From Christensenellales bacterium (GTDB lineage: Bacteria > Bacillota > Clostridia > Christensenellales > UBA3700): a DNA stretch of 64,000 nucleotides. This document shows, in pieces, positions 7,040 to 34,820 of this stretch. The notes under the pieces are model-generated. The model did not search any database and was not told the DNA's origin. It saw nothing but the letters and a program-made list of their open reading frames with translations. Position 1 is the first letter of the stretch, and each line of letters starts with the position of its first letter. Made by a program: the position numbers and the translations under genes. The stretch is from assembly GCA_051883395.1 (NCBI GenBank), contig JBJETQ010000022.1, forward strand, positions 2,305-66,304, in the 5' to 3' direction.

Positions 7040-8308
7040 ATGAAGATAGATACCAATTGTGTTCAAGGCGGATATAGCCCAAAGAACGGTGAAGCGAGAG
7101 TTTTGCCTATATATCAAAGCACGACGTTTGCTTATGATACTCCCGAACAACTTGCCGACGTGTTCGATCTCAAAGATCCCGGCTTTATGTACACTCGTCT
7201 GGGCAATCCAACCGTCAATTATTTTGAAGATAAGATTGCTTTGCTTGAAGGCGGAGTAGGAGCGCTTGCAACTTCTTCCGGACAAGCTGCATCGTTGCTT
7301 GCCATTCTCAACGTGTGCAACGCAGGCGATAACATTATCGCAGTCAACAAAATATATGGCGGCACCTTCAATCTTCTCAACGTAACGCTGAGAAGGTCGG
7401 GGATAGAAACTCGTTTTGTGGACCCCGAAGCAGACGCCGACGAGATAGAAAAACTTATCGATGACAAGACTAAGGTTATATTTGGTGAAACCGTTGCCAA
7501 TCCCGCTATGACTATTTTTGATTTTGACAAGTTTACTGCCATAGGCAAAAAATACGGCATTCTGGTGTTTGTTGACAATACGCTGGCTACGCCGATTTTG
7601 TGCAGACCTTTGGAATTGGGCGCAAACGTAGTGATTCACTCTACTACCAAATATATCGACGGACATGCTTGTTGCGTGGGCGGTATAATTGTGGACGGCG
7701 GAAATTTTAATTTTGTCGGCAATCCACGTTATCCTATGTTCAATGAACCGGACGCAAGCTATCACGGCATGGTGTATACCAGAGATTGCGGAAATAAGGC
7801 GTTTGTTGTCAAGGCAAGGGTTCAGCTTTTGAGAGATTTGGGTACTACCATGAGTCCGTTTAACGCCTTTTTGACCAACATGGGCGCCGAAACTTTGCAT
7901 CTGAGAATGGAAAAACACAGCTCAAATGCTCTTGCTGTTGCAAAGGCGCTGGCAAACAACCCTAAGATTGAAGAAGTGAGATACAACGGCCTGGAAAGCG
8001 ATCCGAGCTACGAGCGAGCATGCAAATATTATCTGGGCAGGGGCTTTGGCGGAATGATGACTTTCTGCGTCAAGGGTGGCAGAGATGCGGCTAACAAAGT
8101 GATGAAGAACCTTAAACTTGCAAAAATCGTTACTCACGTGGCTGATGCAAGAACATGCGTGCTGCACCCAGCAAGCACTACTCACAGACAGCTTTCTGAC
8201 GAGCAATTGGTTGCTTGCGGAATCAAGGACAATCTTATCAGACTTTCGGTGGGCATTGAAGACGCCGAAGATATAATTGCAGATCTCGAACAAGCGTTGA
8301 ACGCATAA
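7040..8308 (+). CDS. metY: O-acetylhomoserine aminocarboxypropyltransferase (sulfhydrylase), Cys/Met-metabolism PLP family
   Basis: PIYQSTTFAY, NPT, HSTTKYIDGH (the PLP-binding lysine context) and HPASTTHRQL. AAGGAG RBS at 7025; ATG 7040 lies 13 nt after the smpB stop. Confidence 0.85.
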   Translation: MKIDTNCVQGGYSPKNGEARVLPIYQSTTFAYDTPEQLADVFDLKDPGFMYTRLGNPTVNYFEDKIALLEGGVGALATSSGQAASLLAILNVCNAGDNIIAVNKIYGGTFNLLNVTLRRSGIETRFVDPEADADEIEKLIDDKTKVIFGETVANPAMTIFDFDKFTAIGKKYGILVFVDNTLATPILCRPLELGANVVIHSTTKYIDGHACCVGGIIVDGGNFNFVGNPRYPMFNEPDASYHGMVYTRDCGNKAFVVKARVQLLRDLGTTMSPFNAFLTNMGAETLHLRMEKHSSNALAVAKALANNPKIEEVRYNGLESDPSYERACKYYLGRGFGGMMTFCVKGGRDAANKVMKNLKLAKIVTHVADARTCVLHPASTTHRQLSDEQLVACGIKDNLIRLSVGIEDAEDIIADLEQALNA

Positions 8309-8332
8309 ATAACAACTACAAAGGAGAAAAAT

Positions 8333-9253
8333 ATGCCAATAGTAATTCCTAAATCATTACCTGCGTTTCAAATATTGACCAAGGAACGAATTTTCGTTAT
8401 GCCTCAGGCAAGGGCTATAAAACAGGATATAAGACCTATTCAGATAGCCATCGTCAACCTGATGCCGACAAAAATCGATACCGAAACGCAGCTTATGCGA
8501 TTGCTGGGTAATTCTCCTTTGCAAATCGAAGTTACGTTGGTTGCTATGGACAGCTATACTTCCCGCCATACACCGTTGGAACATATGGAAAAGTTCTATA
8601 AGACGTTCGACCAGATAAAGGATACGAAATTTGACGGAATGATTATTACCGGCGCTCCGGTGGAACAGATGGCATTTGAAGAAGTGGCGTATTGGAAAGA
8701 ATTGACCAGAATAATGGATTTTTGCGAGAGTAACGTTACTTCAACAATTTATATCTGTTGGGGAGCTCAGGCAGGCTTGTATTATCACTACGGAATAAAT
8801 AAGCATAACCTGGACAAAAAGCTCTTTGGAGTGTGCAGCAACGTAAGCTGCGACCCTAAGGAATTGTTGCTCAAAGGTATGGACGATACTATTTATATCC
8901 CTATGTCAAGACATACTGCTGTGGACGATAAAGCTATTGTCGCCACTCCTGACCTGGTGCCACTTGCATACGGCGACGACTGCGGTTACAGTATTATCAA
9001 GAGCAAAGACAATCGTAAGTTTTTCTTTATGGGACACAGCGAGTACGACAGAGAAACGTTGCGCAACGAGTACCTTAGAGATAAGGAAAAGGGGTTGGAT
9101 ATAGAACAGCCTTTCAACTATTTCGTGGGCAGAGACATCAACAAAATAGATATGAAATGGAAGTCTACTGCCAACTTGTTGTTCTATAATTGGCTCAACT
9201 ATTACGTATATCAGGTTACGCCATACGATCTGACGGCAGATTTGCATCGTTGA
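8333..9253 (+). CDS. metA: homoserine O-acyltransferase MetA (MetA/HTS family)
   Basis: MPIVIPKSLPAF ... IRPIQIAIVNLMP.K..TE.QL.RLL ... FDGMIITGAP ... ICWGAQA is a canonical MetA sequence. Confidence 0.9.
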   Translation: MPIVIPKSLPAFQILTKERIFVMPQARAIKQDIRPIQIAIVNLMPTKIDTETQLMRLLGNSPLQIEVTLVAMDSYTSRHTPLEHMEKFYKTFDQIKDTKFDGMIITGAPVEQMAFEEVAYWKELTRIMDFCESNVTSTIYICWGAQAGLYYHYGINKHNLDKKLFGVCSNVSCDPKELLLKGMDDTIYIPMSRHTAVDDKAIVATPDLVPLAYGDDCGYSIIKSKDNRKFFFMGHSEYDRETLRNEYLRDKEKGLDIEQPFNYFVGRDINKIDMKWKSTANLLFYNWLNYYVYQVTPYDLTADLHR

Positions 9254-9553
9254 TTTTGACGAGCAGCAACTGCCGCCAAGGGTGCAAATATATTTGACAA
9301 GAAAAAGTTACTGCTCTTTGTACCGACTCATACTTCCATCGCCAATATCGGAGAGAGTCGTGCAAGAGCAGAAAAAAATGTCGACGTATACTGTAATATT
9401 GGAAGAATTTGTGCGGTAGAAAGTGTTGTAAACTAAGCAAAATATTTGTACACTATAATAGTTAGGCAATTACGATAGCATAATACGTTTAGAAAAAAAT
9501 CAAATTGCTTTGTTATCAAAAAAATAAAAAATGTTGACACGTATCGACTTTAT

Positions 9554-9896
9554 GGGGGTGTAACGGATTCGACAGGAGAAATGATGATTGTGTAAGCACG
9601 GCGAAGGCTCGGCTTCGTAAAAACGGAAATTAAATTTAAACGCTAATAATAACAAACAAATTGCCGTAGCTGCTTAATTGCTCGGCTGTCGTCCGAAGAA
9701 TCCACGACTTCGGAACGGCATCAGCTAGTGGAAAGTGCCTAAGGGAAGTGCCCGTACCCATAGGCGAGATCAGGGCTAGTTTGGCGACGATTTGGTAGCG
9801 TTGGCATCGTCAAAGACCAATCAACGCATACTAACCGTGTAGAAAGCGCAGTAGGAATTCTTTTGGACGCGGGTTCAACTCCCGCCATCTCCACCA
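9554..9896 (+). ncRNA. ssrA: tmRNA (SsrA)
   Basis: The 5' end GGGGGTGTAACGGATTCGACAGG and the 3' tRNA-like end GGACGCGGGTTCAACTCCCGCCATCTCCACCA are both present. The tag reading frame is 9642-9677: GCT AAT AAT AAC AAA CAA ATT GCC GTA GCT GCT TAA, giving ANNNKQIAVAA. Confidence 0.9.
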
Positions 9897-18495: not shown

Positions 18496-18529
18496 TTGAC
18501 AACAATGGTTGGATATATGATAATATAAT
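18496..18529 (+). promoter_or_regulatory. candidate promoter of the 15-gene operon
   Basis: TTGACA (18496-18501), a 17-nt spacer, then GATAAT (18519-18524), with an overlapping TATAAT at 18524-18529. It sits in a very A+T-rich 450-nt intergenic region. Confidence 0.4.
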
Positions 18530-27947: not shown

Positions 27948-28301
27948 ATGTGTTTTAAAAAATTTACAGAAAAGAGAAAATTGAAAAACTATAACAAGCA
28001 TGATGAAGAAATAAAAGAAAGCAATAGCGTTCTTCGTTCCAATTTTGCCAAGGTAAAAACTTTGTGCGGAATGACTCAATCAGATACAGTAAAGAGCAAA
28101 CTCAATGAAGTTGCCGATTTGTTAGAATATGCATCTCCGTCGACAAAAGGTGAGGTCGTAAAGGAAGATAACAAGATTTCTGACAGGCTTGATGACGTAA
28201 AAATTCTTATTGTTGGAGAGAAGGCAGAAGATAAAATTGTTGAAAAAATCAATGAAATCAGGATTATGGTTATTGAGAGAAATAATTTGACAGGTGTGTA
28301 A
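27948..28301 (+). CDS. operon gene 10: small charged helical protein, unknown family
   Basis: 117 aa with an AAGGAG RBS. Its stop lies 1 nt before the gene 11 start. Confidence 0.5.
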   Translation: MCFKKFTEKRKLKNYNKHDEEIKESNSVLRSNFAKVKTLCGMTQSDTVKSKLNEVADLLEYASPSTKGEVVKEDNKISDRLDDVKILIVGEKAEDKIVEKINEIRIMVIERNNLTGV

Positions 28302-28302
28302 A

Positions 28303-28908
28303 ATGTGGCCTTTTAACAAAAATAAGTTTGAAAAAATCAAGCGTAGCGACGTGGTTGACAGTATCATAAACATAGAGCGCAGGCAACAAGAAGAAATTGA
28401 TAACGTCGGGGAGCGAGAAAAAGAGATAGCGAAACTTTTGCAACAAGGAAAGGCTTGCAAAAGTCGTGATATGCAACTTGCGCTTGCCAAACGCATCAAT
28501 TTGCTTAAAAAAGAAAATAGCAACTCCGCTCAAAGAATTCAGTATCTTAACGCCAATTTGCAGGCGCTAAATCAGCTTAAAACGGCAATTGACGACAAAG
28601 ATTTTATTTCCAACAATTCGGATATACCAATCAACAAACTGTTGACCGATACGGCAGCTTTACAAAAATTTCTTGCCGGTGTAACCAACAAGAAGATGAA
28701 GGGAGAGAGCAAACTTTCTGCGGCGCTTGATACTTTTGATAATGTGGACGACGGCTATGAAGCTAACGAGCGCATTTATGGAGTAAGCGAACAGGACGAA
28801 CAACTTTTAAGTATGTTTGAAATGGAAAATTCTGAAGAAGACGCTTCGGTTTTTGGTGCGCCTGAGTACGAAAAAAATACACAAAGCATAGAAAAGGACA
28901 GCTTATAG
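28303..28908 (+). CDS. operon gene 11: ESCRT-III (Snf7 family)-like protein
   Basis: 201 aa. The N-terminus MWPFNKNKFEK resembles the yeast Snf7 N-terminal MWSSLFGW. It has a basic helical hairpin (IERRQQEEID..EKEIAKLLQQGKACKSRDMQLALAKRINLLKKE..RIQYLNANLQALNQLKTAI) and an acidic C-terminal tail. Confidence 0.7.
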   Translation: MWPFNKNKFEKIKRSDVVDSIINIERRQQEEIDNVGEREKEIAKLLQQGKACKSRDMQLALAKRINLLKKENSNSAQRIQYLNANLQALNQLKTAIDDKDFISNNSDIPINKLLTDTAALQKFLAGVTNKKMKGESKLSAALDTFDNVDDGYEANERIYGVSEQDEQLLSMFEMENSEEDASVFGAPEYEKNTQSIEKDSL

Positions 28909-28922
28909 TGAGGTAGCAAATA

Positions 28923-29516
28923 ATGGGAAGATTTTTCAAGACAAAAGAGGAAAAAGAACTCGAAAAAAGAATGCTCGTCAAAAAGACGATGCGAGATATT
29001 GAGAAACATATCGTAAAATTGCAAGCACAAAAGCAAAAAGCTGTAGAATCGGCAAAGCAAGCCAAGCTTCAAGGTTCGCCTCAACAGTATAGTCTTGCTG
29101 TCAGCTGTTTGAGAACAGCTCTTGCACAAGAAAAGAAAGCAAAAGAAATGTTGCTCAATTTCCAAAACACTTTGCAAATGCGTGATTTGAGCCAAATGAC
29201 AAGCGAGTTTTTGAAGGGAATGAGCATAGTGTCAAAAGAAATGCAAGCTATTACAAAAGATATGAATTTTGCAAAAGTTCAAAAGGAATTTGAAACGGCT
29301 ATGATGGGCATGGAGAATACCACGGATAATCTTGACGCAATGCTTGATTCTACCAACGATACTTTTTCTGCTATATCGTCTTCCAATATCAATATTGACG
29401 ACGCAGAAATCGAAGCGCTTATCGGCAATCAGGCAAGTGAATCTGAAAAGGAACTTGACAATGCCATAGACAAAAAACTCGACGAAATTTCAAAGTCGCT
29501 CAATGGAGCAAATTAA
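28923..29516 (+). CDS. operon gene 12: ESCRT-III (Snf7 family; CHMP2/CHMP3-like) protein with a C-terminal MIM1-like helix
   Basis: 197 aa. The N-terminus MGRFFKTKEEKELEKRM resembles CHMP3 MGLFGKTQEKPPKE. It is collinear with CHMP cores (MRDIEKHIVKLQAQKQKAVESAKQAKLQG ... LRTALAQEKKAKEML ... MTSEFLKGMSIVSKEM ... KVQKEFETAMMGME). The tail is ELDNAIDKKLDEISKSL. Confidence 0.8.
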   Translation: MGRFFKTKEEKELEKRMLVKKTMRDIEKHIVKLQAQKQKAVESAKQAKLQGSPQQYSLAVSCLRTALAQEKKAKEMLLNFQNTLQMRDLSQMTSEFLKGMSIVSKEMQAITKDMNFAKVQKEFETAMMGMENTTDNLDAMLDSTNDTFSAISSSNINIDDAEIEALIGNQASESEKELDNAIDKKLDEISKSLNGAN

Positions 29517-29525
29517 GGAGCAAAA

Positions 29526-31079
29526 ATGGCTGACGCTGATAAAAATGCTTTTATTTACGATACGTTTTTGATGTATTACGAGCATGCAAAAAAAGCACAA
29601 GAACGTGGCGATATTGCCGGAGCAAAAGAAAACTTGCTCCGTGCTGCGCAAGCATTGGTAAAACTTGCCAAGGAAGATAAGGGAGAACTGAAAAAAGCGA
29701 GATTTGATAGAGCAAATCGCCTTATAGAAATTGCCAACAGTCTGACTCCTAACAGCGTAGTTATCGGAGAAAATTCCAACGTTAAGCGCTCGTCAAATTC
29801 TAACAAATCTGATTCTGCCCGTTCTAACAATGCTTCAAAAAACGAAGATGAAGAAAAAATATGGCAGGCGTCTTCTATACCTGATGTCAAATTTAGCGAC
29901 GTGGCAGGTTTGGAAGACGTAAAAAACACTATAAGAATGAGAATGATAAATCCGGTCAAATATCCGGAAAAATACGCTGTTTACAATAAGAAAAGCGGCG
30001 GTGGAGTTTTGTTATACGGACCACCCGGCACTGGTAAGACAATGATTGCCAAAGCAATTGCCAATGAGGTCGGTGCAACGTTTTATGCAATCAAAGGCTC
30101 GGATATAGTAAGTAAGTGGGTAGGAGAGTCGGAAAAAAACATCAGCAGCCTATTTGAAACGGCTCGTAAGGACAAACTTGCAATAATTTTTGTCGATGAA
30201 ATGGATAGTTTGTTTGGTCAAAGGGGTGTGGACCCGCACAATGACAAACGTGTAAACGAGTTTTTGCAGCAAATTGACGGTTTTGTAGGGCGCAACCCTA
30301 ATCTTTTGTTACTGGGTGCGACAAACCGTCCGTGGGACGTCGATGGTGCGGCTGTGCGTTCCGGACGATTTAGCGAAAAAATTTATGTTCCGTTGCCTGA
30401 TGCACAAGCGAGAATGTACCTGTTGAAAAAACAACTTAAAAACATTCCTTTGGGCAGCGATGTTGATTTTGATAAAGTTGTTCAGATGACCAAAGGATAT
30501 TCGGGAGCGGATATCGATGAAGTATGTGATAGAGCCAAAGAAATACCGCTCAATAATTTTATAAAAAACAATATAGAAGAAAAAGTATGTATGAAACATA
30601 TCATAGGAGCAATAAAAAAGGTGAGACCTATGGTAAGTGCCGAGGAAATTGCTCGTTTTGAGGAATATGCGGGAGTAAGATATAAGGACTCTCCTGATGA
30701 AGAAGACGACATAGAATTCAATGACGAGACACAAAACGACGTCAATACAAATAACTCGTCGGTACAAAACGAAAGCTCGGAAGATGTAACAACTAAAAGG
30801 CAAGAAGCTCCAAAAATCATATTCGAGAAAACTCAAATAGATTTACAGCCAGGAGAAAATCCGACAATCCAATTCTATATTGACGGAGATTATGACAGAG
30901 TATATCTAGAATTGGACGGAGCCAATTACGTGTGTGAAAAATGTATACGCAACTGGAGCTGCGTTGTCAATGTACAGGAAGCAGGAGATTATGTTGCCAG
31001 GATTTTTGCTAAAGAGTTGCTGGGAGAAGAAAAATTGACGTTTTCAAAAGGTTTTGTAGAAAACGATATGGAGATTTGA
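29526..31079 (+). CDS. operon gene 13: Vps4-like AAA+ ATPase (N-terminal MIT domain, single AAA cassette, C-terminal helix, extra beta-rich C-terminal domain)
   Basis: MIT-like three-helix region at aa 1-78 (YYEHAKKAQERGDIAGAKENLLRAAQALVKLAKED ... RANRLIEIANSL). Walker A GPPGTGKT, pore loop SKWVGESEK, Walker B IIFVDEMD, sensor-1 GATNRPW. Arginine-finger region AVRSGRFSEKIYVPLPD resembles Vps4 RRFEKRIYIPLP. Followed by MVSAEEIARFEEYAG and about 125 additional aa. Confidence 0.8.
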   Translation: MADADKNAFIYDTFLMYYEHAKKAQERGDIAGAKENLLRAAQALVKLAKEDKGELKKARFDRANRLIEIANSLTPNSVVIGENSNVKRSSNSNKSDSARSNNASKNEDEEKIWQASSIPDVKFSDVAGLEDVKNTIRMRMINPVKYPEKYAVYNKKSGGGVLLYGPPGTGKTMIAKAIANEVGATFYAIKGSDIVSKWVGESEKNISSLFETARKDKLAIIFVDEMDSLFGQRGVDPHNDKRVNEFLQQIDGFVGRNPNLLLLGATNRPWDVDGAAVRSGRFSEKIYVPLPDAQARMYLLKKQLKNIPLGSDVDFDKVVQMTKGYSGADIDEVCDRAKEIPLNNFIKNNIEEKVCMKHIIGAIKKVRPMVSAEEIARFEEYAGVRYKDSPDEEDDIEFNDETQNDVNTNNSSVQNESSEDVTTKRQEAPKIIFEKTQIDLQPGENPTIQFYIDGDYDRVYLELDGANYVCEKCIRNWSCVVNVQEAGDYVARIFAKELLGEEKLTFSKGFVENDMEI

Positions 31080-31080
31080 T

Positions 31081-32583
31081 ATGGAAGAAAAGTTGAAACT
31101 ATACTTTGACGGTATGATTGTCAAAAAATCATCTATTCAGGGAGTTTTTTCTACTTTGAGCTTACCTGCGTTTATTAGAGACTGGTTTATAAAGAGATAT
31201 AGCGATAAAAACGGAGATATTAGCGTTGATTTTGTTACGGAAAAGATAAAGGATATTATTCCAAGAAAAAATGAGTGGAATGCAATTCTTGACAAAATAA
31301 TGACCGGTGAAAAGGCCAAATTTATGGCAAAAATCAACGTTTCATTTGACATAAAAACAGGGCGAGTAAATTTTGCGCTGCCAGACTTTGGTGTAACAAC
31401 CGATCAAACTTATATCAGCGCCACAGTATGGGAGACTTGCAAGAAGAGCCTGTTGCGTACTGATGGCGATATTTGGGGAATAATAGAATTGGGATATGGT
31501 ACGGTCCAAGTCAGCGCAAAAAAAGAGGAAGGAAGGATATTGCTGACTTCATTCAAAGACTTTTTGCCATATAGTATTGATATAAATTATTATAGAAACG
31601 CAAGAAAATATTTTGACTTGGATGAATGGATTGACTTGTTGCTTATGGCGATAGATTACAATCCGTCGGGCTATAACAGTCATGAAGAAAAAATTATGAT
31701 GTTGACCAGGCTTTTGCCGTTTGTAGAAAAGCGTCTTAATCTGATTGAACTTGCGCCAAAAGGTACTGGTAAGAGCTACGTCTTTTCCCAGATCAGTAAG
31801 AGAGGCTGGCTTTCCAGCGGTGGCGTAATGACGAGAGCAAAGTTACTATACGATATGAAAAGCAAACAGGAAGGTTTGGTAGCTAATTATGATTATGTTG
31901 CTCTAGATGAAGTCGGAACAATCAAATTTCCTGATGAGGCAGAAATGCAAGGGGCAATGAAAGGATACCTTGAAAGCGGCTCTTACACGGTTGGTGTAAA
32001 AGCAGGCAATGGTGACGCAGGAATTGTTCTTTTGGGCAATATTAAGTCAGAAATGATGAACGTCAACGTAAATATGTTTGAAAATTTGCCGGCAATATTT
32101 GGTGATTCTGCATTGATAGATCGCTTCCACGGTTTTATTGAAGGCTGGAAAATTCCGAGAATGAACGAGAATATGAAGGCCGACGGTTGGGCACTAAATA
32201 CGGAATATTTTGCAGAAATATTGCATGCATTCAGAGATGACGTTGTATCAAAAACATTGGTTGAAAATGTGCTAATCGTTCCAAAAGATGCAGACACCAG
32301 AGATACTACTGCCGTCAAGAAGATTATGACTGCCTTTACTAAGTTATTGTTCCCGCATTGGCAAAAGCCTCAGGACGTAGATTTTGAAAAGATGCAAAAA
32401 TATTGTCTTGACCCTGCAATGAAGATGAGAAATATTATCAAAAAGCAGTTGGCAATTATTGATGTTGAATATAGAAACAAACCAATGGCAGATTATAGAT
32501 TGATCGGGTATAATCAAACTCCGCCTGATGATCCAAGCGACAAAGATAGTTTAAGCATCGAACAAGCATGTATAAATGAGTGA
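31081..32583 (+). CDS. operon gene 14: BrxL-like AAA+ ATPase (TIGR02688 / Lon-related ATPase family) lacking the Lon protease domain
   Basis: The N-terminus YFDGMIVKK ... SLPAFIRDWFIKRY, Walker A ELAPKGTGKSY and Walker B YVALDEVG followed by MQGAMKGYLESGSYTVG match my recollection of the BrxL N-terminal and ATPase regions. At 500 aa it is too short to include the C-terminal protease domain. Confidence 0.55.
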   Translation: MEEKLKLYFDGMIVKKSSIQGVFSTLSLPAFIRDWFIKRYSDKNGDISVDFVTEKIKDIIPRKNEWNAILDKIMTGEKAKFMAKINVSFDIKTGRVNFALPDFGVTTDQTYISATVWETCKKSLLRTDGDIWGIIELGYGTVQVSAKKEEGRILLTSFKDFLPYSIDINYYRNARKYFDLDEWIDLLLMAIDYNPSGYNSHEEKIMMLTRLLPFVEKRLNLIELAPKGTGKSYVFSQISKRGWLSSGGVMTRAKLLYDMKSKQEGLVANYDYVALDEVGTIKFPDEAEMQGAMKGYLESGSYTVGVKAGNGDAGIVLLGNIKSEMMNVNVNMFENLPAIFGDSALIDRFHGFIEGWKIPRMNENMKADGWALNTEYFAEILHAFRDDVVSKTLVENVLIVPKDADTRDTTAVKKIMTAFTKLLFPHWQKPQDVDFEKMQKYCLDPAMKMRNIIKKQLAIIDVEYRNKPMADYRLIGYNQTPPDDPSDKDSLSIEQACINE

Positions 32584-32600
32584 GTAAACAGGAGCGTCAA

Positions 32601-34820
32601 ATGAGTATAAAAATAAAAAGAAGAGTGGCAATATTTGGCATAATCGCATTACTGTTGGCAGTATTATGCGTAGGCGTTGCTTGCGATTCAAACGAATTCG
32701 AAAGAGATATTTTGCCTGAAAATAATAGCACTGGTGTTGAGGAAGAAAATAAAGTGCTAGAAGATGAATTGGAAAATTTGGCAATGCATCTTGATATGTC
32801 TTTAGGACTATTCAGAGTTCTTAAAGAGAACAATAGTATCCAATATTATACAGCAGTATTTATAGACAATCAAGGCGGTTTTGTTGTGCCAAAAGAAGCA
32901 ATAGAAAATTCTATTAGCGCTGAATTAAAAACTCAAAACAGAATTTATGAAAATAATAAAATTCATGTAATCAAAAACAATGAACAAAGTAATTTTGCCG
33001 TACTCAGTGTTGACGACATTGTTACCGAGGGATTACTTACGACAAAAGAAATAAGCAATAAGGTTTATGCTGTAGGATATAACAAAACTAGCAATAACTT
33101 TGAAAAAAAGGTAATAGAAGTTTATAATTTTGACAAGGTGATAATATCGGCTGAATCAAGCGATTTTCTTTATGGATGTGCATTAATAGATTCGTCAAGT
33201 AAAAAATTATATGGCGTATATTCTCCTGTTGAAGGAGTAGCAGCAAGTGCTGAAATTTTGATGGCTGAGCCAATTGAGGATCAGTTGAGCGGGACTAACA
33301 TATATTGGAGTTTGGCAGAGTATAATCGTTCCAAATATCCATGCAATGTGTCAATATATGACGGTGAGTCGTTAGTATATTCTTTCAGTAGCGGCGTGGT
33401 TTTTGGCACGGCTGTGGGAGATATCTTGGCACAAACACGACATGTACTTAATAATCCGGGTCATGCGCTTGTAGGTTTTTATGACGACGATAACAATCAT
33501 TACACTGACGTCTCCGACGATATAAGAGACGACGTGAATTTGCATACTATGTGGGTAGAGATTGACGTGCTAGAAGAGAACGTAAGGGGAACGGTGAATT
33601 TTGACGAAAGTAAAACCCATTATTTTGATACAGGTATCAGTGTCGTTGCAACAAACGCCCCAGGTTACGTTTTTGCAGGCTGGTATAACGGAATCTACTT
33701 GCTAGATTCGGCATTGAGTGCAAAGTTACCTGTACCACAATATAACGCCACCTTTAATGCTAAATGGGTGCAATTTAGCTATGAAACCAATAATGATGCA
33801 GCAGGAAACGTTGAGGCTACAAGTTCTTATAACAGTATAGGTGATAGCGTTGTGCTGAGAGCCATAGAAACTGATGAGACATATACTTGGTTGGGCTGGT
33901 ATAAGGGCGGCGAAAAGGTTTCTGATTCGTATATATATACTATGACGATCGGAGAAGAAGATGCTCTTTACACGGCAACTTGGGAGAGCTATACGTTGAA
34001 TTTGTCGGCGGATGTGATTGGCAATAGCATTACGGTTAATTTTGACATCAACGATGAACAGGTCAGTGCAACGATGCCTTCTTCGCAGACGATATATACA
34101 GGTGAAAGTATATATTACGTCAAACCTACCGATATAGTTGGCAGATACCTGTTTGCAGGATGGTATAGTACGGCAGATTGCACAGGAGAACCGTTTGATT
34201 TTACCGCCGAGTTGAATAGCGACGTTACGCTCTATGCAAAATGGTGTGCATATAATGTCGATACTAGCAGCAATACATATTATTCAAGGCAAGTGGGCGA
34301 AACGGGAAACATATATGGTTATAGTAAAAATAGCAGTAGCGGAAACTACATAGCATTTGTTCCGTTGGTGAGTCAAAGCATAACTATTTATTCTTCGGGC
34401 AGTTGGGATACGTACGGCTATCTGTATAGCAGTAATATGAGCTTGCTCAGTTATAACGATGACGGTGGCATAAATAATAATTTTAGTATTACATATAGCG
34501 TGAAAGCAGGACAATTATATTATATCAAAGCGTGCGGGTATTCGTCATCAGGTACTATGGGCTTAACGATAACGGGTACTGCAACTCCTGCTGACGGAGG
34601 TAATGTAGTCGGTTTCAGCGGACCTTATTCCGGAAGAATTAAGGCAGGAACTGTATTCAATTTTAGAACCCATGCAACTAGCGGCGCCGGCGCTTATGTT
34701 TTCAATGGCTGGTATGTCAACGGAATCTTGCAAGATGCAGACTACGATGAATTTGAATTTGTAATGCCTTATCAAGATGCAAATATAGAAGTAAAATATA
34801 GAACCATGTCGATTTACTGA
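32601..34820 (+). CDS. operon gene 15: anchored surface protein with a degenerate trypsin-like domain, Listeria-Bacteroides (InlB B-type) repeats and a PPC-like domain
   Basis: N-terminal anchor or possible lipobox IFGIIALLLAVLCVGVAC. Repeats GYVFAGWY, YTWLGWY, GRYLFAGWY..DVTLYAKW and AYVFNGWY. SWDTYGYLYSSNMSLLSYNDDGG ... GQLYYIKACGYSSSGTMGLTITG is typical of pre-peptidase C-terminal domains. AGGAG RBS precedes ATG 32601. Confidence 0.65.
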   Translation: MSIKIKRRVAIFGIIALLLAVLCVGVACDSNEFERDILPENNSTGVEEENKVLEDELENLAMHLDMSLGLFRVLKENNSIQYYTAVFIDNQGGFVVPKEAIENSISAELKTQNRIYENNKIHVIKNNEQSNFAVLSVDDIVTEGLLTTKEISNKVYAVGYNKTSNNFEKKVIEVYNFDKVIISAESSDFLYGCALIDSSSKKLYGVYSPVEGVAASAEILMAEPIEDQLSGTNIYWSLAEYNRSKYPCNVSIYDGESLVYSFSSGVVFGTAVGDILAQTRHVLNNPGHALVGFYDDDNNHYTDVSDDIRDDVNLHTMWVEIDVLEENVRGTVNFDESKTHYFDTGISVVATNAPGYVFAGWYNGIYLLDSALSAKLPVPQYNATFNAKWVQFSYETNNDAAGNVEATSSYNSIGDSVVLRAIETDETYTWLGWYKGGEKVSDSYIYTMTIGEEDALYTATWESYTLNLSADVIGNSITVNFDINDEQVSATMPSSQTIYTGESIYYVKPTDIVGRYLFAGWYSTADCTGEPFDFTAELNSDVTLYAKWCAYNVDTSSNTYYSRQVGETGNIYGYSKNSSSGNYIAFVPLVSQSITIYSSGSWDTYGYLYSSNMSLLSYNDDGGINNNFSITYSVKAGQLYYIKACGYSSSGTMGLTITGTATPADGGNVVGFSGPYSGRIKAGTVFNFRTHATSGAGAYVFNGWYVNGILQDADYDEFEFVMPYQDANIEVKYRTMSIY

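Follow-up and report, generated by a model that had tools for sequence, protein, structure and literature searches.

Predicted pairing of a MIM1-like tail helix with an MIT-type domain in neighbouring ESCRT-III-like and AAA+ ATPase genes of a Christensenellales genome

An ESCRT-III-like gene pair and its neighbouring AAA+ ATPase gene

The stretch of DNA analysed here (64,000 nucleotides, hereafter the window) belongs to a metagenome-assembled genome (MAG) of Christensenellales (Clostridia) and carries three consecutive genes, two of which code for ESCRT-III-like proteins (genes 11 and 12) and the third for an AAA+ ATPase (gene 13). An initial reading of the sequence alone had singled out the segment 29445-29759, which comprises residues 175-197 of gene 12 and residues 1-78 of gene 13, and proposed that gene 12 ends in a helix resembling the MIT-interacting motif 1 (MIM1), side by side with the MIT domain that could bind it. 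The tail of gene 12 is probably a helical MIM1 (Type 1)-like motif docking on the MIT-type domain of gene 13, an interface predicted from family alignments, structure models and charge covariation. All coordinates are window positions on the plus strand and are collected in Table 1.

Gene 12 encodes a bacterial Snf7-clade ESCRT-III-like subunit, and a protein from an NCBI MAG matches its product at 100% identity. The window protein matches the Pfam family Snf7 (PF03357) with an E-value of 2.2e-4 and 21.4 bits, under the gathering cut-off of 27.3. Snf7 is the sole Pfam family that recurs among 65 relatives, with matches in 29 of them at E <= 0.01 (best 2.8e-8) and no PspA match in any. The AlphaFold2 (AF2) model, built from a 65-sequence alignment, consists of helices 8-50, 53-111, 114-153 and 160-196 with a mean predicted local distance difference test (pLDDT) of 76, and displays the alpha1-alpha2 hairpin and alpha3-alpha5 helices of ESCRT-III proteins. 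Its best Foldseek matches in the PDB are the CdvB (9s9k) and CdvB2 (9s99) filaments of S. islandicus and CHMP2A-CHMP3 (7zcg_B; template-modelling score TMt 0.66); their E-values are weak (0.045-0.3), as expected for extended helices. The N-terminal motif resembles in sequence the membrane-anchor motifs found at ESCRT-III N-termini and is presumably comparable to the N-terminus of CHMP3, MGLFGKTQEK.

Gene 11 is a divergent paralog of gene 12. The two families align colinearly in hhalign (residues 4-181 against 1-173, probability 50%, E 1.6e-4; another run gave a weaker result) and have in common the MWPF/MGLF motif at the N-terminus and DDxLLAMFE, the alpha5-like motif. Beyond the latter (EQDEQLLSMFE in the window), nothing follows in gene 11 but a variable acidic tail; a terminal helix is absent. 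No Pfam match and no PDB sequence match were found for gene 11, and the search of its family profile against the PDB was uninformative. The mechanical open reading frame (ORF) starts at GTG 28294 (MCKMWPF); the true start is likely ATG 28303, because the family consensus begins with MWPF. The sequence-only reading had treated genes 11 and 12 as ESCRT-III-type paralogs, only the second of which carries a MIM1-like tail, and the profiles, fold matches and family alignments agree with it on each of these points.

Gene 13 (517 aa) lies in the same frame as gene 12 and begins 9 nt past its stop codon, which overlaps the Shine-Dalgarno sequence of gene 13; this overlap suggests that translation of the two genes may be coupled. 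In a survey of 84 sources (83 loci and the window), genes 11, 12 and 13 are adjacent in nearly all, with a gene 11 match in 82, and gene 13 is directly downstream of the Snf7-like gene in most.

The domain order of gene 13 is that of Vps4 and CdvC: an MIT-type domain, a single AAA+ module (placed at residues 161-290 in the domain-order check) and a C-terminal helix. The module contains a Walker A (165-172), a Walker B (220-227), the motif VRSGRF (277-282) and the pore loop SKWVGESEK (196-204), which we take to resemble the Vps4 loop. It matches the Pfam families AAA (2.4e-40) and AAA_lid_3 (8.8e-10) and, marginally, Vps4_C (residues 350-381; 21.7 bits against a cut-off of 21.3). Crenarchaeal Vps4 is not known to have a beta-domain insertion, and gene 13 likewise appears to be without one. 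The C-terminal domain (about residues 429-517, some 90 aa) has no significant match to a Pfam family; it is present in the window clade and missing from orthologs of 370-385 aa, and ortholog lengths range overall from 370 to 757 aa, some falling between 700 and 757 aa. We describe gene 13 as an MIT-AAA ATPase that would work like Vps4: its architecture is that of Vps4, and the sequence of its module is not clearly so.

The tail helix of gene 12 and its putative receptor

Translation of gene 12 gives the C-terminus DDAEIEALIG-NQASESEK-ELDNAIDKKLDEISKSL-NGAN followed by the stop, so that the protein does end in the helix (E177-L193) described in the sequence-only reading. This helical element, modelled as such by AF2, occupies residues 177-193 of 197 and follows a flexible linker (169-176). 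It is about 17 residues long with a 4-3-4 hydrophobic spacing, like MIM1, and its hydrophobic stripe is narrow and charge-flanked (hydrophobic moment muH 0.55, mean hydrophobicity -0.19). When the MIM1 consensus is relaxed to I/L/V/M at hydrophobic and K/R at basic positions, D179, I182, K185, L186 and I189 fit, i.e. five of six positions. The relaxed pattern minus its terminal K/R, starting in the last 25 residues, arose in 0.48% of 20,000 shuffles of gene 12, and among 939 other ORFs of >=150 aa that the related loci contain, 4 (0.43%) showed the same pattern near the C-terminus. A Pfam search with the isolated tail returned nothing meaningful.

Conservation of the tail helix is stronger evidence than the pattern match. 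Among 71 non-redundant relatives of gene 12, I182 is kept in 69 and K191 in 68; a hydrophobic residue stands at position 186 in 70, and at positions 189 and 193 in all 71, while position 190 is R/K in 52. The family consensus of the tail is I-D-K-E-(L/M)-E-E-(L/V)-(R/K)-K-K-(I/L).

The N-terminus of gene 13 is predicted to be an MIT-type three-helix bundle. From an alignment of 67 sequences, AF2 models three helices with pLDDT of 96-98, forming a bundle of about 70-80 residues that is joined to the AAA+ ATPase by a disordered linker, as MIT domains are. The top Foldseek matches are 2w2u, 2v6y, 2cpt, 4u7y, 4a5x, 2jq9 and 2k3w, of which ranks 1, 2 and 4 are the Sulfolobus CdvC/Vps4 MIT domains; the MIT domains of VPS4A/B, MITD1, spartin and ULK3 align to the bundle with root-mean-square deviations of 1.6-2.9 A, and TMt is 0.67-0.77 over 2w2u, 2v6y, 2jq9, 2k3w, 4u7y and 4a5x. 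A 43-sequence profile of the domain produced 17 PDB matches at E <= 10, ten of them MIT domains, with E-values for the MIT structures from 9e-4 to 0.5. Alignment to the VPS4A MIT domain by hhalign gave an E-value of 1e-3 with a probability of only 20%. Precomputed matches to PF04212 exist for about a dozen gene 13 orthologs, PF09336 is also found among the orthologs, and a homolog search with the N-terminal 150 residues returned just two proteins. The sequence-only reading had staked its proposal on a three-helix MIT fold at this place, and such a bundle is what AF2 returned.

Both hhalign and HMMER align helix 3 of the bundle in the same way, A70 corresponding to A67 of VPS4A, V/I67 to L64 and position 71 (N71) to E68; a manual alignment that equated N64 with VPS4A E68 was dropped in favour of this one. 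L64D is the classical VPS4A mutation that abolishes MIM1 binding (PMC11218997). Type 1 motifs lie in the H2/H3 groove of the MIT domain, parallel to helix 3 (PMC9477494).

Charge covariation and the weighing of the interface

Tails and MIT domains were aligned for 77 gene 12/gene 13 pairs. When 875 tail x MIT column pairs are compared, opposite charges correlate most strongly at K185-N64 (r -0.87), followed by S192-N71 (r -0.68), and the third-ranked pair joins E164 of the alpha5-like motif with R27 in the H1/H2 turn. At 185/64, 61 pairs are of opposite sign, 16 neutral and none of the same sign; the corresponding counts at 192/71 are 49, 27 and one. The majority clade combines E185 with R/K64 and K192 with D/E71, and the window clade combines K185 with N/Q/D/E64. 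Within the window clade both partners have switched in two lineages (Q185/K64 in L004; E185/K64 in P0027/P0131), and three of five changes at position 185 share a tree branch with a compensating change at 64. Six pairs that were added later all obey the 185/64 rule, and one of them breaks the 192/71 rule. Since the two covarying pairs are spaced i+7/j+7, they suggest that the tail may pack parallel to MIT helix 3, on the face of the VPS4A L64 equivalent; positions 64, 67 and 71 share one face of that helix. The polarity is as in MIM1-MIT complexes, with a tail that is acidic then basic and a helix 3 that is basic then acidic.

Several observations weigh against this interface. The strict MIM1 consensus (D/E)xxLxxRLxxL(K/R) has no match in gene 12, and the last position of the relaxed one is S190 instead of K/R, with K191 next to it. 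Lys takes the place of the central Arg in the window clade alone, most relatives having Glu there; a basic residue at this position, and with it a fit to the relaxed pattern, is confined to 6 of 79 family members. On the receptor side, the Foldseek E-values are modest (5.8e-3 and weaker), with FliS, ribosomal protein S20 and designed bundles also matched, and the isolated N-terminus of the window protein has no Pfam MIT match at E <= 10. The AAA module appears nearer to Cdc48/Rix7 D2 than to Vps4, a ranking by similarity scores: the large subdomain scores 201 bits with Rix7 D2 and, when both p97 domains are added together, about 255 bits, against 158 with yeast Vps4 (2rko), and the lid and C-terminal region best match p97 D2, VAT and katanin, Vps4 not being among the top 60. 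In NCBIfam, gene 13 matches CDC48 with 233 bits and CdvC with 214 bits (cut-off 650), both far under their cut-offs.

The covariation has weaknesses as well. The single same-sign 192/71 pair (E-E) comes from locus L089. Most of the signal seems to derive from one deep clade split and two leaf events, and a same-branch co-change count of three is not unique to 185/64. In a tree-aware simulation both pairs reached z of about -3.3 to -3.5 (P <= 4e-4), a significance that we downgraded because control pairs of the ESCRT-III core with the MIT domain reach equally extreme values (5 of 1750 at z <= -3.3, minimum -4.05) and other pairs have three co-changes too. The covariation is therefore only suggestive of a contact between the tail and the MIT domain.

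Finally, the IDxELxxL helix is retained in relatives of gene 12 that are fused to FtsK-like or RuvB-like ATPases, so that MIT docking may not be its sole role. These fusions (P0271, P0274, P0279, P0289, P0297, P0313 and P0359, and positions 8001-9863 of locus L084) have an N-terminal ESCRT-III-like domain of about 185 aa, attached either to an FtsK_alpha/FtsK_SpoIIIE ATPase or to a RuvB-like AAA+ module that also bears a nuclease domain, NERD or TnsA-like. They suggest a direct functional link between the ESCRT-III family of gene 12 and translocase-type ATPases.

The fusions, together with the unconserved central Arg, the equally covarying controls and an AF2 model in which residues 160-196 form one continuous helix with no separate tail, favour a generic alpha6-type ESCRT-III element. 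Such a helix would serve autoinhibition, filament packing or the binding of gene 11, the SPFH protein or the FtsK-like ATPase encoded nearby; its MIM1 likeness would be incidental to any acidic-then-basic amphipathic helix, and the MIT-like domain would have another ligand or none. We regard this as unlikely. The narrow charge-flanked stripe suits a ligand held in a groove, and the helix sits at the extreme C-terminus, past a variable linker and just upstream of the gene for an MIT-domain ATPase. The lack of any same-sign 185/64 pair and the i+7 register of the second covarying pair also speak for docking. Locus L084, despite its fusion protein, keeps a separate tailed ESCRT-III/MIT-AAA pair that follows both charge rules.

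The MIM1-like fit claimed at the outset therefore held for the relaxed pattern and failed at S190 and for the strict consensus. The further claim of a functional interface as opposed to a chance similarity gained from the chance-match rate of about 0.5%, the conserved helix and a charge covariation that fits parallel MIM1-like docking, and lost from the controls and from the few family members that fit the pattern.

A strictly Type 1 mode of binding is held with less assurance than docking itself. Type 3 motifs, which lie in the H1/H3 groove, are likewise helical and parallel to helix 3 (PMC9477494), and the mapping onto VPS4A, including that of L64, rests on a low-probability alignment, from which Type 1 and Type 3 do not appear firmly separable; this too counts against the proposal in its strict form. 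The tail could bind the MIT domain in the Type 3 or Type 4 mode, or in a two-helix wrap that uses DDAEIEALIG, as the third-ranked pair E164-R27 and the inverted charge logic of position 185 in most of the family, compared with canonical MIM1, would allow. We consider these modes slightly less likely even than the generic helix, given that positions 64, 67 and 71 are on one face of helix 3, that two independent alignments put position 67 at the hot spot L64, and that the helix of about 17 residues has the MIM1-like 4-3-4 spacing.

If the tail does act as a MIM1-like ligand, gene 12, probably with the tail-less gene 11, would polymerise on a membrane, and the flexible linker would present its tail helices to the MIT domains of a hexameric gene 13 AAA+ ATPase. 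The tail would dock parallel to MIT helix 3, burying the stripe I182/L186/I189/L193 against the V/I67 face, with flanking salt bridges between tail position 185 and MIT position 64 and between tail position 192 and MIT position 71. Once recruited, the ATPase would draw subunits out of the polymer by way of its KWVG pore loop and so remodel or recycle it. We infer here that tail and domain physically bind, as well as the groove, the polymerisation, the disassembly driven by ATP and the role in the cell.

Operon context and comparison with known systems

The three genes belong to an operon of about 16 kb (18573-34820) with a GC content of 0.37-0.40, against 0.43-0.47 in the flanks. Gene order is conserved between the window and three related loci (L001-L003). 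It begins with the FtsK/EssC-like ATPase, several proteins of about 80-180 aa, a transmembrane (TM)/leucine-rich repeat (LRR) protein and a tetratricopeptide repeat (TPR)/zinc-ribbon protein with an ESAT-6-like end, and continues with the SPFH zinc-ribbon protein, a protein of about 110 aa, genes 11, 12 and 13 and the BrxL-like ATPase. In the window, its members include proteins of 180, 105 and 117 aa, the TM/LRR protein is of BspA type, and a Listeria-Bacteroides-repeat protein belongs to it as well.

The gene for the FtsK/EssC-like ATPase, whose N-terminus has no obvious TM segment, is conserved in the three loci, which also contain genes equivalent in size to the WXG100-like trio, and the SPFH zinc-ribbon gene is conserved in related loci. 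The BrxL-like gene is without a Lon protease domain, stands outside any BREX locus and directly follows gene 13, as it does in the three loci. A PADLOC search left genes 11 and 12 unmatched and gave gene 13 generic AAA matches only (IetA, TRIP13), so that the trio, the neighbouring BrxL-like gene aside, is not a catalogued defence system. The operon is also not among the variants a-j described for type VII secretion systems (T7SS) in PMC11217815.

Table 1. Positions of the genes, domains and motifs in the window
Feature	Position	Strand	Basis
Strong promoter-like site of the operon, upstream of the FtsK/EssC-like gene	18496-18524		Promoter scan, 11/12 matches
FtsK/EssC-like ATPase, first operon gene	18573..22100	+	Pfam FtsK_SpoIIIE 3.5e-28; NCBIfam EssC 3e-39, under cut-off
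Three genes, 86-90 aa, WXG100-like small helical proteins	22091..22895	+	One matches WXG100, E 2.9e-4, under cut-off
SPFH/Band_7 protein with C-terminal zinc ribbon, upstream of the ESCRT-III genes	26985..27917	+	Pfam Band_7_1 2.2e-25, Zn_Ribbon_1 1.7e-8
Gene 11, divergent ESCRT-III-like paralog	28303..28908	+	hhalign against gene 12 family; position upstream of gene 12
Gene 12, ESCRT-III (Snf7-clade) protein, 197 aa	28923..29516	+	Snf7 profile, AF2, Foldseek
N-terminal MGRFFKTKEEKE motif of gene 12	28923..28958	+	Family consensus MGLFKSKxEKE
Alpha5-like conserved motif DDAEIEALIG, gene 12 residues 159-168	29397..29426	+	Family conservation; aligned to gene 11 DDxLLAMFE
Variable polar linker NQASESEK, gene 12 residues 169-176	29427..29450	+	Poorly conserved, gapped alignments; pLDDT 65-66
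Terminal amphipathic helix E177-L193 of gene 12, ELDNAIDKKLDEISKSL, MIM1-like element	29451..29501	+	Translation, pattern check, family alignment, AF2 helix
Gene 12 stop overlapping the AAGGAG Shine-Dalgarno sequence of gene 13, reads TAAGGAGCAAAAATG	29514..29525	+	Sequence
Gene 13, predicted MIT-AAA ATPase	29526..31079	+	
MIT-like three-helix bundle of gene 13: H1 2-26 (29529-29603), H2 30-50 (29613-29675), H3 53-72 (29682-29741)	29529..29741	+	AF2, Foldseek, profiles
S/N-rich disordered linker of gene 13, about residues 73-115	29742..29870	+	pLDDT <50 from residue 81; unconserved
Single classic AAA+ ATPase module with lid and C-terminal helix, gene 13	29871..30680	+	Pfam, NCBIfam, motifs
Acidic linker and C-terminal domain of gene 13, residues 386-517	30681..31079	+	Only some orthologs
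BrxL-like ATPase (TIGR02688 type)	31081..32583	+	Pfam BrxL_ATPase 1.7e-113; PADLOC BrxL 6.8e-194; NCBIfam TIGR02688 424 bits, above cut-off

A profile search of 1.84 billion representative proteins retrieved 584 relatives. At least 142 species-level genomes contain a relative of gene 12, all of them Clostridia-type MAGs from gut and sediment, assigned to Christensenellales, Izemoplasmatales, 'Coproplasma' or labelled Lachnospiraceae. A metagenome scan with a single protein of the family found one locus, and in a scan of viral contigs none carried the family, which gives no sign that it is phage-borne. Gene arrangement varies in some of the related loci. Locus L084 combines its fusion protein with genes for an SPFH protein, a separate tailed ESCRT-III protein, an MIT-AAA ATPase and an LRR protein, and in locus L089 (244-3579) the gene 12 homolog has an MIT-like AAA gene (402 aa) on its upstream side and, downstream, a gene for a RuvB-like/TnsA-like protein of 728 aa.

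The conserved operon points to membrane remodelling that may be tied to an FtsK-like ATPase partnered by WXG100-like and SPFH proteins. It is conceivable, although we hold this wider picture only tentatively, that these Clostridia possess a complete ESCRT-like machine. Such a machine would comprise tailed and tail-less Snf7-clade paralogs, like Vps2/Vps24-type pairs, and an MIT-AAA disassemblase recruited via a MIM1-like helix, in which the salt-bridge polarity has flipped with compensating MIT changes; it would be housed in an undescribed operon with FtsK-like, WXG100-like, LRR surface protein, SPFH scaffold and BrxL-like components.

The same neighbourhood, with its FtsK/EssC-like ATPase, WXG100-like proteins, ESAT-6-like C-terminus and BrxL-like ATPase, could also be taken to mean that the likeness to ESCRT is superficial. 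Genes 11 and 12 would then be coiled-coil accessories, and gene 13 would be an EccA analogue, a chaperone ATPase akin to Cdc48 whose adaptor bundle is TPR-like, in a T7SS-like or defence-type locus; the closeness of the AAA module to Cdc48 D2, the Snf7 score of the window protein under the Pfam cut-off and the weak Foldseek E-values of genes 12 and 13 go in that direction. We judge this very improbable, since Snf7 is the sole recurring Pfam family among gene 12 relatives and their top folds are ESCRT-III, MIT domains dominate the profile and fold matches of the gene 13 N-terminus, and SPFH and zinc-ribbon proteins also stand beside archaeal ESCRT loci (PMC10936438). Nor are the two readings exclusive, as a secretion system could make use of an ESCRT-like module. 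In actinobacterial T7SS, the cytosolic AAA+ ATPase EccA combines a TPR domain of several repeats with an AAA module of the CbbX type. Gene 13 matches NCBIfam EccA only generically (E 1.4e-9, 37 bits against a cut-off of 467), and neither Snf7 nor SPFH components are listed for the described T7SS variants, unlike the operon here.

Taking the tail and the MIT-type domain as a MIM1-like pair, the closest known system is the eukaryotic and Asgard MIM1-Vps4 MIT recognition, in which the tails of CHMP1, CHMP2, Vps2 and IST1 pair with Vps4 in eukaryotes and which has been predicted in Asgard archaea (PMC9477494, PMC11218997, PMC7240154). The predicted pair shares with it an amphipathic C-terminal helix past a flexible linker, with an acidic start, 4-3 spacing and a basic end, and a receptor in the form of a three-helix MIT bundle at the N-terminus of a single-ring AAA+ ATPase. 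It differs in its bacterial host, in departing from the strict consensus, in having Lys (window clade) or Glu (most relatives) for the central Arg with a complementary charge on the MIT domain, in its motor nearer to Cdc48 D2 and in a binding that is here a prediction only.

The closest prokaryotic operon is CdvB-CdvC of Crenarchaeota (PDB 2w2u), which likewise associates an ESCRT-III protein with an MIT-AAA ATPase; the CdvC MIT domain is the best fold for the gene 13 N-terminus and CdvB the best for gene 12. CdvB has no MIM1 and engages the H1/H3 groove through an extended, proline-rich MIM2 (PMC7240154), whereas gene 12 is without a proline motif or a winged-helix domain, ends in a helix and has no CdvA partner. 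PspA and Vipp1 are also bacterial membrane-remodelling polymers of the ESCRT-III superfamily, sometimes accompanied by SPFH/Band-7 proteins and AAA+ ATPases (PMC11237479, PMC7619361). They lack an MIT-ATPase partner, however, and the gene 12 family matches Snf7 and not PspA_IM30; PspF, a partner of PspA, is a sigma-54 activator without an MIT domain, unlike gene 13. In gene content, the archaeal 'Meth_adaptin' ESCRT loci (Makarova et al. 2024; PMC10936438) resemble the operon by an ESCRT-III and a Vps4-like ATPase gene beside one for an SPFH zinc-ribbon protein, but carry adaptin-like and ProX-like genes and no FtsK-like, WXG100-like or BrxL-like ones.

Published descriptions of a MIM-MIT-type recruitment interface concern archaea and eukaryotes only. 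According to PMC7619361, bacteria appear to lack a Vps4-like ATPase, and MIM1 has been held to have arisen in the Asgard/eukaryote line since crenarchaeal CdvB lacks it (PMC7240154). Sporadic transfers of Vps4-like genes to bacteria with displacement of snf7 have been reported, as well as some Snf7/AAA+ associations in other operon types (PMC11237479). Within the set of papers searched, we found no bacterial Snf7 plus Vps4-like system, no T7SS variant with ESCRT or SPFH parts and no account of the clostridial operon. Probably new here are a MIM1-like/MIT interface in bacteria, its altered charge logic and its Cdc48-like motor.

A helical MIM1-like tail encoded beside an MIT-AAA gene bears on both the apparent absence of a Vps4-like ATPase from bacteria and the origin of MIM1. 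If the interface is real, helical MIM-MIT recruitment would be older or more widely transferable than thought, or would have been reinvented by an MIT bundle joined to a Cdc48-like module. The 17-residue tail peptide and the 80-residue domain make a tractable experimental pair, and the natural charge-swapped variants offer a test of how MIM-MIT specificity evolves. ESCRT-III-type remodelling would moreover be tied to an FtsK/WXG100-type export locus in abundant Christensenella-related gut bacteria.

Elsewhere in the window, a tmRNA gene is located at 9554-9896 and encodes the tag peptide ANNNKQIAVAA, which confirms that the contig is bacterial.

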